DNA from: a virus
Taxonomy: Duplodnaviria; Heunggongvirae; Uroviricota; Caudoviricetes
DNA length: 64,000 nt
Direction: 5' to 3' (one strand)
IMG/VR virus record: IMGVR_UViG_2657245091_000008
A program made the translations under genes and the position numbers. Under the pieces are notes generated by a model, which saw only the letters and a list, made by a program, of their open reading frames with translations, did not search any database and had not been told where the DNA came from. This document shows positions 26,342 through 31,338 of this stretch, one piece after another (within the stretch, counting starts at the first letter, position 1; each line of letters starts with the position of its first letter).

Positions 26342-26609
26342 ACTACAGACGCGTGTAGAGGAACTTGAAAAAGAGAACGCTGGCCTCAAAAAAATGCTGG
26401 CCCGGGCAGAAAGGGAGTTGTCCGGCAAACTTCTGCCAGAAGAACTGCCACCAGCAGATATACCCGAGCGAGTGTCCCGGTGGATGAAATCTTTTTGTTT
26501 GCCGTGGGAGACTTTTTGGTGCTACGACCATCGCAGATGGTGTGATGAGCTTGATAGCAGTTTCCCCTATTTTGCGGAAGGGAACTCTTGCCCTGAATGT
26601 AGGAGTTAA
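26313..26609 (+). CDS. small coiled-coil / zinc-ribbon protein (tandem paralogue A)
   Basis: 98 aa; C-terminal W..F.C.DH..W.DELDSSFPYF...CPEC shared with the next gene. Confidence 0.45.
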   Translation: MRRVMPTKAELQTRVEELEKENAGLKKMLARAERELSGKLLPEELPPADIPERVSRWMKSFCLPWETFWCYDHRRWCDELDSSFPYFAEGNSCPECRS

Positions 26610-26914
26610 TGATGACCGGCGAGCTTTATTTTAAAATGGCACGGGAGCGGCGTGTGCATCTGGATCGGATATTTCATCTCCAGAAGAGAGTAGAAGAACT
26701 GGAACGTCGTCTGAACTGTTATCCTGTTGATATGGTGTCTGCAATACCGCCGATTCCAATAGAAATGCAGATCCGCCTATGGATGGAAGAATATGGAATG
26801 CCGTGGGAGATATTTTTCTGCTTCGACCATAAACAGTGGGTAGATGAGCTGGATAATAGTTTCCCATATTTCACAGAGAACACATGCCCAGTATGCAGGA
26901 AGAACGGAATATGA
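26609..26914 (+). CDS. small coiled-coil / zinc-ribbon protein (tandem paralogue B)
   Basis: 101 aa; same C-terminal motif (WEIFFCFDHKQWVDELDNSFPYF...CPVC). Confidence 0.45.
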   Translation: MMTGELYFKMARERRVHLDRIFHLQKRVEELERRLNCYPVDMVSAIPPIPIEMQIRLWMEEYGMPWEIFFCFDHKQWVDELDNSFPYFTENTCPVCRKNGI

Positions 26915-27435
26915 CAAAATTTGGAAAGCTGGAAGCTCATTTGCTAACTCGTAACTACCGCCATGATATACACCCATATAGACAGTGGATCGATGAAAGC
27001 GAAGGAGTAGTTACATTCCCTCTATACAGGTTTGATGGGATGTTGGCTGGGTATCAGACATATAGACCAGGTGCTCCTAAGCAGCATAGCAATCCGAAGA
27101 TGGCCCGGTATTTCACGCGATCACACGGCAGACAGTTACTTTGGGGAACCTATCTTCCTTTAAAAGATGGCCCAATATGGATAACTGAGTCTATTTTTAA
27201 GAGCGCAGCTGTACACAACGCGGGCGGCAATTCGTGGGCGCTGTTAGGTTCAACTTTCTCCGCAGGATTACGCCGTCAACTTGCGATGCTGCCGTATGAC
27301 TTTCGTGTAATAGGTGACAATGATGCGGCTGGTGAATCACTTGTGAAGTCTTTCGGAAAAGGTTTTGTGGCCCCGGATCTTGACGAGCTACAACCACATG
27401 AAGTGTCTCATTTGATTTTTAGCCATAGCCAATAA
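26911..27435 (+). CDS. Toprim-domain protein
   Basis: Conserved ITES...VIGDNDAAG (Toprim Glu and DxD) arrangement; start overlaps the upstream stop. Confidence 0.45.
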   Translation: MTKFGKLEAHLLTRNYRHDIHPYRQWIDESEGVVTFPLYRFDGMLAGYQTYRPGAPKQHSNPKMARYFTRSHGRQLLWGTYLPLKDGPIWITESIFKSAAVHNAGGNSWALLGSTFSAGLRRQLAMLPYDFRVIGDNDAAGESLVKSFGKGFVAPDLDELQPHEVSHLIFSHSQ

Positions 27436-27643
27436 GCATCTCTCCCCTTTGAGGTCACAATTAGTGGCCTTAAACAATGTGTTTTCTACCTCGATTTAGC
27501 CTTTATTATCGTTTTGCATTTCTCTAATCCGGGCAACGAGGTTACGCTGATCCGTTGGTGATGAATAGTAGCAAAGCGCACAAAATCATCAGCGGTGGTT
27601 GATGTACGTAACGCGTTTGCACCAAAGGTGTCTCTTTAATGTA

Positions 27644-27663
27644 TACTGTATAAATGAACAGTA
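27644..27663 (+). promoter_or_regulatory. LexA (SOS) box
   Basis: TACTGTATAAATGAACAGTA fits CTGT-N8-ACAG exactly, 20 bp upstream of humD. Confidence 0.75.
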
Positions 27664-27682
27664 TCATTGAGGTGAAAACGCT

Positions 27683-28072
27683 ATGGGCTTCCCTTCTCCT
27701 GCGGCGGATTATGTTGAAAGCCGAATTTCTCTTGATCAGCAACTAATCAGGCATCCATCAGCAACCTACTTCATGCGGGCGGCAGACAGCCATCACCGTG
27801 AGGGAATATTGCAGGGTGCTTTGCTGGTGGTTGATTCTTCGCTTACTCCAGTTGATGGTTCGCTGCTTGTGTGCGCTATGGAGGGTGAATATCGCATAAA
27901 GAGATACCGAAAGTATCCGCGCCAGCACCTGGAGGATTTAAGCACCGGGAAGAAAGAGGCGTTACCAGTAGATGACGATGGTTACACGGGTAGTAATGCT
28001 GTTTTTGGTGTGATCACTCATGTCATCAATGATGCCCGAAGTGGGGAGTTTGATGATTGTCCGGTCATTTAA
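27683..28072 (+). CDS. humD: UmuD'-like protein (HumD)
   Basis: Begins MGFPSPAADYVE, i.e. at the position of the UmuD cleavage product; SOS box upstream; followed by phd-doc as in P1. Confidence 0.8.
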   Translation: MGFPSPAADYVESRISLDQQLIRHPSATYFMRAADSHHREGILQGALLVVDSSLTPVDGSLLVCAMEGEYRIKRYRKYPRQHLEDLSTGKKEALPVDDDGYTGSNAVFGVITHVINDARSGEFDDCPVI

Positions 28073-28144
28073 GCTGCAAAGTGCTGGTGCTTTATGCCTG
28101 TGAAGTTTATGATTGTGTACACATAACGAGTACACGAGGTGTTT

Positions 28145-28366
28145 ATGCAGTCCATTAACTTCCGTACCGCGCGCGGCAACCTTTCTGAATTGCTCAACAA
28201 TGTTGAAGCCGGGGAAGAGGTTGAAATCACCCGCAGAGGCCGTGAACCAGCAGTAATTGTCAGCAAGGCTACTTTCGAAGCCTACAAAAAGGCGGCGCTG
28301 GATGCTGAATTTGCATCCCTGTTTGACACCCTGGACTCCACCAACAAGGAACTGGTTAACCGATAA
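28145..28366 (+). CDS. phd: antitoxin Phd
   Basis: 73-aa product [39 protein letters not shown]...; GAGGTG Shine-Dalgarno; overlaps the doc start. Confidence 0.9.
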
Positions 28367-28746
28367 TGAGGCATATATCACCGGAAGAACTTATTGCGCT
28401 TCATGATGCGAATATAAGCCGCTACGGCGGCCTGCCGGGAATGTCAGATCCGGGTAGGGCAGAGGCCATTATCGGGAGAGTTCAGGCCAGAGTTGCCTAC
28501 GAAGAGATCACCGACCTTTTCGAAGTCTCCGCAACCTACCTGGTGGCTACTGCGAGAGGGCATATATTCAATGATGCCAATAAGCGTACCGCGCTAAACA
28601 GTGCGCTGCTATTTCTACGCCGTAACGGTATACAGGTATATGATTCTCCCGTGCTGGTGGAACTTGCGGTGGGGGCTGCAACTGGTGAAATCCCCGTATC
28701 TTCAGTAGCGGAAAAACTACGTGAACTATATGGTTCCAATATTTGA
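28366..28746 (+). CDS. doc: toxin Doc (Fic family)
   Basis: 126-aa product [22 protein letters not shown]..., recognisable as P1 Doc. Confidence 0.9.
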
Positions 28747-28781
28747 AAAGAAGCCCGCTCAACCAGGCGGGCTTCCTACTA

Positions 28782-29888
28782 TCACTCAATGATTTTTTCT
28801 GCTGTCAGCCAGCTAATTTCTTGCCTGTCTTTCGGCGGTTTTAGCATGTGGGCGTATTCAGCAACATTCTCCCACGGAATTGTTTTTGCCCACTCAACGA
28901 TAGCATTGTGATCTGCAGTGAAGAGTGGAATGGTGTGCGATTTCAACCACTCCAATGTTGTAACGCCATGTTTTTTGGCGTGGTGCTGTGCATGATGCCG
29001 GGCTATCACTCGTAATGGCATTATCCATTCACTACCATCAGGCATCGAAAAGCGCATTGTCTTCGGCATATCTGATTCAAGAACAGCCTCCCTAATACCA
29101 GGAAACTCACCAAGAACCATACGACGGTAGTAATCGCTGTTTTTACCACCATATATTTCTGCAATGTTATCAAGATAACCTTGAGAAATAATGGGGGTAT
29201 CTTCTGCGTTCAGCTTGATGGCTGTATAAATACCACATGGATTTTCTTCTGATTTAGCACGACCATGATGGGAATCGTAAAAGTGTCCATGCTCCTCCTC
29301 TGAAGGAGCGGACATTAAAAGTATACGTGAATCGTCACTTACTAACGATGCTCTTAACATGCTGAATAGCCGATCGCCAGCAAGAGCCGCCTCCGTAACA
29401 ATGATTAAAAGATGTTCAGCATAATATCCACCGAAACCTTCCTCATAATTTCGGTGATATGGCTTAATTTCGCAGCCCCAATATTCCCGGTAACGATGAT
29501 TGATGCCGTTTCCATCGACTTTAAAATATTCTCCCAGCAATGGGATTCTGTTACTGACTCTATCCCAATACGTACTTATGTATTGGATAACTTGCCTGCG
29601 ACAATTATAGAACTTTGGGGAAACAATAACCGTTTTAGACTCAGGCATCAGGATTGTATAAAGAATACTAATTATAGCGATAACCGTCTTTTGGCCTATC
29701 CCTTCAGGAGTGGTGACGCTGACTGCTGAACCTTTTTGTTGAATCGCCTCAACAATTAGCTTTTGCTGGTGGGTTAACTTAACACCCATCAACTCTTCTG
29801 CTGCTAATGCCCAGTCATGGCTATATTTGCTTACCAGCTCTCTCCACTCTGGTAATTCGGTGATGTTTTTAGGCGTCAGCATCAGCAT
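28782..29888 (-). CDS. terminase-large-subunit (PacB)-like ATPase paralogue
   Basis: Region GFGGYYAEHLLIIVTEAALAGDR...LLMSAPSEEEHGHFYDSHHGRAKSEENPCGIYTAIKLNAEDTP aligns by eye with the PacB core at 35223-36731; Walker-B-like DEAS is replaced by TEAA. Confidence 0.5.
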   Translation of the reverse strand: MLMLTPKNITELPEWRELVSKYSHDWALAAEELMGVKLTHQQKLIVEAIQQKGSAVSVTTPEGIGQKTVIAIISILYTILMPESKTVIVSPKFYNCRRQVIQYISTYWDRVSNRIPLLGEYFKVDGNGINHRYREYWGCEIKPYHRNYEEGFGGYYAEHLLIIVTEAALAGDRLFSMLRASLVSDDSRILLMSAPSEEEHGHFYDSHHGRAKSEENPCGIYTAIKLNAEDTPIISQGYLDNIAEIYGGKNSDYYRRMVLGEFPGIREAVLESDMPKTMRFSMPDGSEWIMPLRVIARHHAQHHAKKHGVTTLEWLKSHTIPLFTADHNAIVEWAKTIPWENVAEYAHMLKPPKDRQEISWLTAEKIIE

Positions 29889-30681: not shown

Positions 30682-31338
30682 TTACTCCACTACAAACCAG
30701 TCACATGCCAGTAAATCAGCAACAGACGGCAACCAAACGTTGTCTATATTTTGCGCATCCTTCAATACAAAATGGTCGCCATAAGGAACCTGAATGTCGT
30801 GGAAATTGACGCACCCAGCTAGAACTAACCAGCAGCATTGCTTTTCGCCTTTCCACCCGCGTCGAGATACCTTTCTTCCTTCTTTCAACCACGTCAGCGC
30901 GACAGAAAAGTCGGCTGCTTCAAGGTCGATTTCTTCTTGTTGGGTAGTGATACCACCAGCAGAAATAGTTACGTCCCTGGCTGTAATGAATGTCACCCCA
31001 TTGTGACCTTCAATCCTGAGCGATACCCCATTTTCGAAGATGTCGTTAGTTCGACTAAAGCCATCTTTAAATTTCTTTTCTGATAAACAGGACAGATGAC
31101 CTTCTTCATCAACGACAAGATAGCCGCCAACTTGTGGTAGGTGTTTTTGCAAAAACATTGCATCAACATAGATTCTTACTCCTTTGGGTTCTGTGACCTC
31201 GATTTCACCACAATTAGGCATCACAGGAGTAATACCACCGATGTATTTGATATTCTTGATTTTCGATGCACTAACGTTTTTGTGAGCTTTGTATTTGGGA
31301 AGGAACTTAAAAAGCTCTTTCGTTGCCATGTTATTCAT
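30682..31338 (-). CDS. protein with C-terminal DUF2829 (Tad2-like) domain
   Basis: C-terminal FSVALTWLKEGRKVSRRGWKGEK matches the DUF2829 pattern A..LK.G.KV.R.GW.G. Confidence 0.45.
   Translation of the reverse strand: MNNMATKELFKFLPKYKAHKNVSASKIKNIKYIGGITPVMPNCGEIEVTEPKGVRIYVDAMFLQKHLPQVGGYLVVDEEGHLSCLSEKKFKDGFSRTNDIFENGVSLRIEGHNGVTFITARDVTISAGGITTQQEEIDLEAADFSVALTWLKEGRKVSRRGWKGEKQCCWLVLAGCVNFHDIQVPYGDHFVLKDAQNIDNVWLPSVADLLACDWFVVE

Follow-up and report, generated by a model that had tools for sequence, protein, structure and literature searches.

The closest described relatives of the locus analyzed here are the humD-phd-doc regions of P1 and P7. The P1 record (AF234172) annotates a LexA site, humD, the sigma-70 promoter Pphd, phd and doc, and the P7 record (AF503408) likewise annotates a LexA site, humD, Pphd, phd and doc. 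In P1, the 20-mer is described as the “LexA binding site in the regulatory region of lxr and humD”, whereas the P7 record ties its LexA site to “regulation of humD expression”. A note on P1 humD states that the gene “functionally complements E. coli UmuD'”. The gene has also been described as a LexA-regulated SOS gene within the “humD-phd-doc cluster” (PMC9603915). Regarding the downstream module, phd-doc is autoregulated by Phd with Doc as a corepressor, under conditional cooperativity (reviewed in PMC3920265). In P1 lysogens, humD and phd have been followed by RT-qPCR upon thermal C1.100 induction rather than DNA damage, the two serving there as genes outside C1 control (PMC4713147). Therefore, as these records and papers attest, the arrangement of a LexA box, a pre-cleaved UmuD′ and phd-doc is already known and is textbook P1 biology. 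The P1 humD-phd-doc region was reportedly described in 2004 by Lobocka et al. (J Bacteriol 186:7032). The HumD protein of P1 was reportedly shown by McLenigan et al. in 1999 (J Bacteriol 181:7005) to substitute for UmuD′ in SOS mutagenesis, with complementation in recA430 hosts. It reportedly comes without a cognate umuC, uses host UmuC and is poorly expressed.

The window, i.e., the whole stretch of viral DNA that was analyzed (64,000 nucleotides, IMG/VR record IMGVR_UViG_2657245091_000008), carries a close relative of this region. Its identity to P1, P7, SJ46, D6 and RCS47 is 94-96%, and over 3.5 kb it reaches 99.9% to NZ_CP031917, a non-mobilizable E. coli O45:H2 plasmid of 95 kb. The locus is very probably the humD-phd-doc of a P1-like phage-plasmid, consisting of two independently mobile and independently regulated cassettes arranged head to tail (Table 1). 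As found, it re-identifies the textbook P1 region on a P1-like E. coli phage-plasmid and matters little. The sole new element is the idea that DNA damage might also switch on phd-doc, which the layout of the locus allows.

Table 1. Features of the humD-phd-doc locus and its flanks (positions in the window)
Feature	Position	Strand	Basis or remark
Co-directional ORF, 183 aa	26884-27435	+	RefSeq name: toprim domain-containing protein
Terminator-like hairpin closing the toprim-domain ORF	27448-27474	+	11-pair stem, T-rich tail
Candidate weak sigma-70 promoter of humD	27617-27647	+	Rough log-odds scan, 7.9 bits
LexA operator (SOS box) TACTGTATAAATGAACAGTA	27644-27663	.	Motif match; annotated LexA protein_bind site in P1, P7
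Shine-Dalgarno GAGGTG of humD	27669-27674	+	8 nt before ATG, from sequence
humD, 129-aa pre-truncated UmuD′ homologue (M-GFPSPAADYVE...)	27683-28072	+	Pfam, NCBIfam, alignments
humD-phd spacer, 72 nt	28073-28144	+	Leftmost part of the autonomous phd-doc cassette
Pphd	28085-28113	+	Transferred from the P1 annotation (sigma-70)
Phd/Doc operator, two 8-bp GTAC-core palindromes	28115-28135	.	Sequence and PMC1802561
phd, 73-aa antitoxin and repressor	28145-28366	+	PhdYeFM_antitox (Pfam), phd_fam (NCBIfam)
doc, 126-aa Fic-fold toxin	28366-28746	+	Fic/DOC (Pfam), DOC_P1 (NCBIfam)
GC-rich hairpin (10 bp) separating doc from the convergent ORF	28750-28775	.	dG -19.7 kcal/mol, z = -2.7
Convergent ORF, 368 aa	28782-29888	-	ORF list

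HumD is assigned to the UmuD family by several independent comparisons. It matches Peptidase_S24 (Pfam PF00717) with 36.1 bits against a cut-off of 23.3, and the NCBIfam HumD equivalog NF051876 with 220.2 bits against a cut-off of 120, covering positions 1-129 of 129. The protein is identical to P7 HumD at all 129 residues and to P1 HumD at 128 of 129 (G103 here, C103 in P1). Alignments with UmuD and UmuD′ place the Gly at residue 2 of HumD opposite Gly25 of full-length UmuD (8gmt_B 25-136, E ~1e-22) and opposite the first residue of UmuD′ in the crystal structure (1umu_A, E = 2e-23). Therefore, the product begins at the Cys24/Gly25 autocleavage site, as the sequence-only reading had proposed; HumD is devoid of both the 24-residue N-terminal arm and the Cys24-Gly25 cleavage site. 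The positions of the S24 Ser/Lys dyad are kept at the level of alignment (HumD Ser36 and Lys73 for UmuD Ser60 and Lys97). As Gly follows Met1, removal of Met1 by methionine aminopeptidase is expected. A umuC partner was not found adjacent to humD. The umuDC operon of E. coli also has a promoter controlled by a LexA box, and it is residues 25-136 of its UmuD that align with HumD. Since HumD is without the N-terminal arm of E. coli UmuD, no RecA*-mediated self-cleavage is required. It had been stated more broadly that the product needs no RecA-mediated activation. That statement holds for the bypassed conversion of UmuD to UmuD′, but not for the remaining steps: derepression at a LexA box requires RecA*-stimulated cleavage of LexA, and the activity of Pol V itself requires RecA-ATP.

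The LexA box TACTGTATAAATGAACAGTA is the single occurrence of CTGT-N8-ACAG in 64 kb. The bare core is not rare, with 0.79 copies expected per 64 kb and at least one found in 53 of 100 shuffles, and to this extent the 20-mer could be viewed as a chance palindrome without a regulatory role. The probability of this view is nevertheless negligible when the full 20-mer is considered. Scored against the gammaproteobacterial LexA operator consensus TACTG(TA)5CAGTA (20 nt), it agrees at 17 of 20 positions, and a match as good, i.e., with three or fewer mismatches, occurred in none of the 100 shuffles. All three mismatches are central and both arms are perfect; calling the box “perfect”, as had been done, is slightly generous because the (TA)5 centre is imperfect. 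The box is also identical base for base in P1, P7 and the window, though the flanking bases vary, and an equivalent box lies 5′ of every humD homologue examined. On the shuffle test of the 20-mer and the conservation across P1, P7 and the homologous loci, a chance origin was rejected. The distance from the end of the box to the ATG of humD (27683) is 19 nt, the same as in P1 and P7, so that the position claimed for it, shortly 5′ of the gene, was confirmed. Another view assigns the box to the divergent lxr gene, in which case it would be a leftover in the window and humD would be expressed from elsewhere or not at all. In P1, the box indeed sits between the divergent lxr and humD, and the promoter PhumD is predicted ~480 bp upstream, inside lxr; the window is without lxr, and its homology to P1 starts only at 27532. 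However, the box remains with humD where lxr is missing (the window and NZ_CP031917), and the P7 record assigns it to humD regulation. Moreover, CTGT-N8-ACAG is present in all four homologous loci that were fetched (N15, HK639, BTP1 and G19), where the upstream genes are unrelated and the 20-mer ends 14-19 nt before the ATG. An origin as an lxr remnant is thus very improbable, if somewhat less so than chance. LexA control of humD, as annotated in P1 and P7, is thus the favored reading. The wording that the box is “driving” the gene is inexact, as a LexA box acts as an operator and transcription is not driven by it.

The humD promoter was sought with two kinds of scan. A strict consensus sigma-70 scan at the box gave no site in the window, N15, HK639, BTP1 or G19. 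A rough scan, based on position weight matrix log-odds, yielded the candidate in Table 1, in which the -35 TTGCAC (27617-27622) and the -10 TATACT (27642-27647) are separated by a non-optimal 19-nt spacer, and the -10 overlaps the left arm of the LexA box. A comparable geometry recurs in the window, N15, HK639, BTP1 and G19: a -35-like hexamer lies 23-27 bp 5′ of the box, the left arm of which holds the -10 (TATACT or TACTGT), and the scores in this rough scan are only 5-8 bits. From these sites, we infer the position of the humD promoter, which appears to be weak. This candidate conflicts with the PhumD predicted in the P1 record, the region of which is absent from the window because P1 homology begins downstream of it. 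On the upstream side, the 183-aa ORF had no match in Pfam or NCBIfam, and the hairpin closing it (11-pair stem) is predicted to isolate humD from transcription coming from upstream.

Downstream of humD, phd and doc follow as had been read from the sequence, with a spacer of 72 nt (the reading had given 70 bp), and their families were confirmed by Pfam and NCBIfam; the NCBIfam matches of humD, phd and doc all exceed the curated cut-offs, and the Pfam families are Peptidase_S24, PhdYeFM_antitox and Fic/DOC, respectively. Phd is identical to P1 Phd at 72 of 73 residues. Doc is 90% identical to P1 Doc, with the differences concentrated in the C-terminal ~38 amino acids and the HIFNDANKR motif intact. 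The two genes overlap by 1 nt (TAATG, 28364-28368). Pphd consists of a -35 TGGTGC (28085-28090) and a -10 TATGAT (28108-28113); the G at 28111 is shared by the window and NZ_CP031917, whereas P1, P7, pHNSHP24 and phi456 have TATAAT. The operator is formed by the palindromes GTGTACAC (28115-28122) and GAGTACAC (28128-28135), the centres of which are 13 bp apart, and it is identical in P1, P7, pHNSHP24 and phi456. This geometry agrees with the published Phd operator, which has two 8-bp palindromes spaced 13 bp centre to centre (PMC1802561). A repeat search with a 6-nt seed missed these palindromes, which were located by eye and confirmed against the same paper (PMC1802561). The hairpin beyond doc has a T-run on the minus strand only and was scored as terminator-like on that strand. 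A search for known RNA families across 26800-29600 gave only sub-threshold chance matches.

The distribution of the two halves of the locus points to a modular origin. HumD homologues aligning from residue 1 in tblastn include N15 gp26, phiKO2, HK140, HK639, BTP1, Pantoea phage G19 and others, and the proteins start with M-G-F-P (ATG-GGx-TTC-CC) in N15, HK639 and G19 and with M-E-F-P in BTP1. The box with humD is found in 657 plasmid records, of which 610 are non-mobilizable. The segment comprising the spacer, phd and doc (674 bp) is found in 1,241 plasmid records, of which 532 are of conjugative or mobilizable plasmids, and in most plasmids carrying it the phd-doc cassette occurs without humD. 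A probe spanning the humD-phd junction (27960-28220) was covered by at least 80% in only 432 of 1,219 plasmid records; among the other matches listed, most begin at query position 110, where the stop codon of humD lies. Two examples illustrate this breakpoint. In the IncF plasmid pHNSHP24 and the P1-like phage phi456, homology to the window begins at 28069/28070, at the TAA of humD. Both have the same spacer and phd-doc, but a divergent type I R-M methylase gene lies upstream, and the LexA box and humD are missing. Since homology of the cassettes without humD starts at the humD stop, the whole spacer belongs to the phd-doc cassette. Judged from these homology boundaries, the box with humD and the phd-doc module are two cassettes, each mobile on its own, and the stop codon of humD marks the exact point where they join. 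A junction at this position means that humD is without a terminator of its own. The modularity of the locus, as well as its anatomy, its identities and the missing terminator, was observed directly in the compared sequences.

A terminator between humD and phd had been set beforehand as the finding that would count against read-through from the SOS promoter into phd-doc. No terminator-like site was found in 28073-28144, and no stable RNA structure was found in the spacer, which folds no better than its shuffles (z = +0.44). Other humD cassettes differ in this respect: in N15, a rho-independent terminator is annotated directly behind gp26, and in HK639 and BTP1, the stop codon of the humD homologue is followed at a distance of ~20 nt or less by a terminator-like hairpin. 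As the spacer has neither a terminator nor a structure, SOS-driven read-through into phd-doc is plausible and structurally allowed. Such read-through is not required for phd-doc expression, because phd-doc has its own autoregulated promoter. Dependence of the toxin-antitoxin (TA) module on an upstream SOS promoter was thus not found, Pphd and the operator both lying in the spacer.

A stronger proposal is that humD-phd-doc is a true SOS-inducible operon, in which LexA cleavage would meaningfully raise phd-doc mRNA by read-through. Several features are consistent with it. All three genes share one strand, no terminator-like site or significant structure is present in the 72-nt spacer, and the locus truly differs from the N15, HK639 and BTP1 cassettes in having no hairpin after the stop codon. 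Conservation of the junction extends to 432 plasmids, and the weakening of the Pphd -10 from TATAAT to TATGAT would raise the relative weight of an upstream input. A precedent is dinB-yafN-yafO-yafP of E. coli, where a type II TA module lies behind a LexA-controlled translesion polymerase gene. The evidence on the other side is weightier, and a true operon seems unlikely. Not only does phd-doc have its own promoter and operator and mostly occur without humD, but humD is also found without phd-doc; since each cassette occurs without the other, their adjacency resembles a mosaic junction more than an operon kept by selection. The promoter of humD seems to be weak, and HumD is, as mentioned above, reportedly poorly expressed (McLenigan 1999). 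In addition, operator-bound Phd/Doc could act as a roadblock to read-through, and autorepression would buffer what passes. No supporting experiment was found in the literature, the RT-qPCR of PMC4713147 having used thermal induction, and a search for P1 lysogen transcriptomes or for a response of phd-doc to SOS induction or mitomycin gave no relevant report. The reading of two independently regulated cassettes head to tail is therefore preferred over that of an operon.

Combining the two cassettes, the locus would work as follows. In an undamaged cell, LexA on the box would block the weak humD promoter, and upon DNA damage, RecA*-stimulated cleavage of LexA would derepress humD. HumD would be made directly in the UmuD′ form, and after loss of Met1, its N-terminal Gly would correspond to the first residue of UmuD′. 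Being already in this form, HumD could pair with host UmuC, skipping the slow RecA-mediated cleavage of UmuD. Downstream, Pphd would be controlled by the two GTAC-core palindromes overlapping it on its downstream side, where Phd dimers are expected to bind with Doc as a corepressor, and phd and doc would be translationally coupled. Transcripts from the LexA-controlled promoter probably enter phd-doc to some extent, as we infer from the missing terminator. The expression of phd-doc would be independent of this read-through from humD, and Phd/Doc autorepression would buffer the extra input. In this scheme, LexA regulation, the function of HumD and Phd/Doc autoregulation are taken from the literature.

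A further idea goes beyond passive read-through. The humD cassette might have lost its terminator on fusing to phd-doc at the stop codon, such that SOS transcription would push through the operator occupied by Phd/Doc and enlarge the Phd/Doc pool, or alter its ratio, specifically during DNA damage. This idea is doubtful, even more so than the operon proposal. If it were true, plasmid addiction or Doc-mediated translation arrest would be linked to the SOS response, and the effect might be larger in variants with the weakened Pphd -10 (TATGAT). Significant read-through would make DNA damage a further input to a TA system that is among the best studied of those with conditional cooperativity. With the cassette junction lying at the humD stop and the hairpin missing in comparison with N15, HK639 and BTP1, the question of read-through is well posed and cheaply testable.

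Compared with P1 and P7, the core of the locus is nearly unchanged. The LexA box and its 19-nt distance to humD are the same, HumD is 99-100% and Phd 99% identical, the overlap of phd and doc is alike, and the spacer with the operator differs from that of the window by one base only. The differences from P1 are minor. Upstream, P1 has the divergent lxr, whereas the window has the co-directional toprim-domain ORF and its terminator-like hairpin instead. Downstream of doc, P1 has pdcA/pdcB, and the window has the convergent 368-aa ORF in their place. P1 also has TATAAT as the Pphd -10 and another Doc C-terminus, where the window has TATGAT and ~38 diverged C-terminal amino acids.

The stand-alone humD cassettes (N15 gp26, HK639 UmuD, BTP1, G19 and phiKO2 Gp23) are more distant, with protein identities of 41-70% to HumD, and each has its own neighbors. 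The homologue is flanked by a tail fibre gene and sopB in N15, by a tail protein gene and int in HK639, and by gtrA and int in BTP1; in these three, the genes after the humD cassette (sopB, int) are convergent and unrelated. G19 has an RNA polymerase gene upstream and a MazF-like TA module downstream, but the latter is convergent. In pSCU-306-2, which represents a divergent P1-like lineage, hot and an ORF precede the box and humD, followed by a convergent apbC, and there is no TA module. Among the cassettes compared, the P1 type alone has humD abutting a co-directional TA module without a terminator. The nearest parallel outside the humD cassettes is the dinB-yafN-yafO-yafP operon of E. coli, in which, as here, a type II TA pair lies on the same strand behind a translesion-synthesis gene controlled by a LexA box; the read-through proposal builds on this functional analogy. 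Co-transcription of the TA genes from the LexA-controlled promoter has been reported for that operon, whereas the TA module of the P1 type brings its own autoregulated promoter.

Regarding the region upstream of humD, lxr, the divergent LexA-regulated gene of P1, is absent from positions 26884-27643 of the window, and homology to P1 starts only at 27532. In its place lies a 183-aa ORF, which is named toprim domain-containing protein by RefSeq and for which searches of Pfam and NCBIfam found nothing. The tandem paralogues encoded before it are 42% identical to each other (E = 6e-24) and have in common the C-terminal motif PWE.F.C.DH..W.DELD.SFPYF...CP.CR, possibly a zinc-binding one. The P1 record places its predicted PhumD some 480 bp before humD, within lxr, which points in the opposite direction. 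Such a location is difficult to square with a LexA box and humD cassette that functions in elements lacking that region.

Coordinates of features in the window and in related phage and plasmid records
Feature	Coordinates	Strand	Remarks
Tandem paralogues, 98 and 101 aa	26313-26609, 26609-26914	+	Small ORF pair
183-aa ORF	within 26884-27643	co-directional with humD	Toprim-like motif E...DxD (ITESIF...VIGDNDAAG)
Terminator-like hairpin	27448-27474		3' of the 183-aa ORF
Pphd -10 hexamer	28108-28113		Variant base 28111
MW1434 family type I TA system toxin gene	about 30682-31221	-	From 5679-6218 of L009 (plasmid NZ_CP031917); RefSeq annotation
'Predicted sigma 70 promoter PhumD'	AF234172 87080-87106		2148-2174 of L001 (extract of the P1 record); P1 record annotation
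Pantoea phage G19 humD-like locus	1468-2435 of L004 (extract of the G19 record)
Salmonella phage BTP1 humD homologue	1166-1623 of L006 (extract of the BTP1 record)

In Pantoea phage G19, a LexA box and a humD-like gene are directly followed by a convergent TA pair (MazF/PemK-like toxin, SpoVT/AbrB antitoxin), the end of which overlaps that gene; G19 is a second, independent instance of a humD cassette adjoining a TA module. In Salmonella phage BTP1, a LexA box (TACTGTATTAATATACAGTA) is accompanied by a humD homologue starting with M-E-F-P, which is unannotated on its strand, the minus-strand hypothetical gene BTP1_017 being annotated over the same stretch. As the tblastn match is split into two pieces, this homologue may be frameshifted.

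At the other end of the locus, Doc residues ~89-126 (the C-terminal ~38; 28630-28746) diverge from those of P1 and P7; at the nucleotide level, homology to P1 stops at about 28703. When the two types of doc 3' end were told apart by where matches to the 674-bp spacer-phd-doc query ended (window type, 664-674; P1 type, near 631), the P1 type was no more frequent than the window type in a spread sample of plasmid matches. Downstream of doc (28747-29888), the window contains a 368-aa ORF, convergent with doc and without a Pfam match, whereas P1 contains pdcA/pdcB. The MW1434 family gene, mapped from the near-identical NZ_CP031917 to a site some 2 kb past doc, would, judging from its annotation, place a second gene of the toxin type near phd-doc.

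Within the 72-nt humD-phd spacer, base 28111 is the sole mismatch of the window to P1 and P7 in the alignment. The resulting Pphd -10 hexamer, TATGAT, is also present in NZ_CP031917 and may make the addiction operon's own promoter weaker. In contrast, the hexamer is TATAAT in P1, P7, the IncF plasmid pHNSHP24 and phage phi456, the spacers of the latter two differing from the window at one further base.
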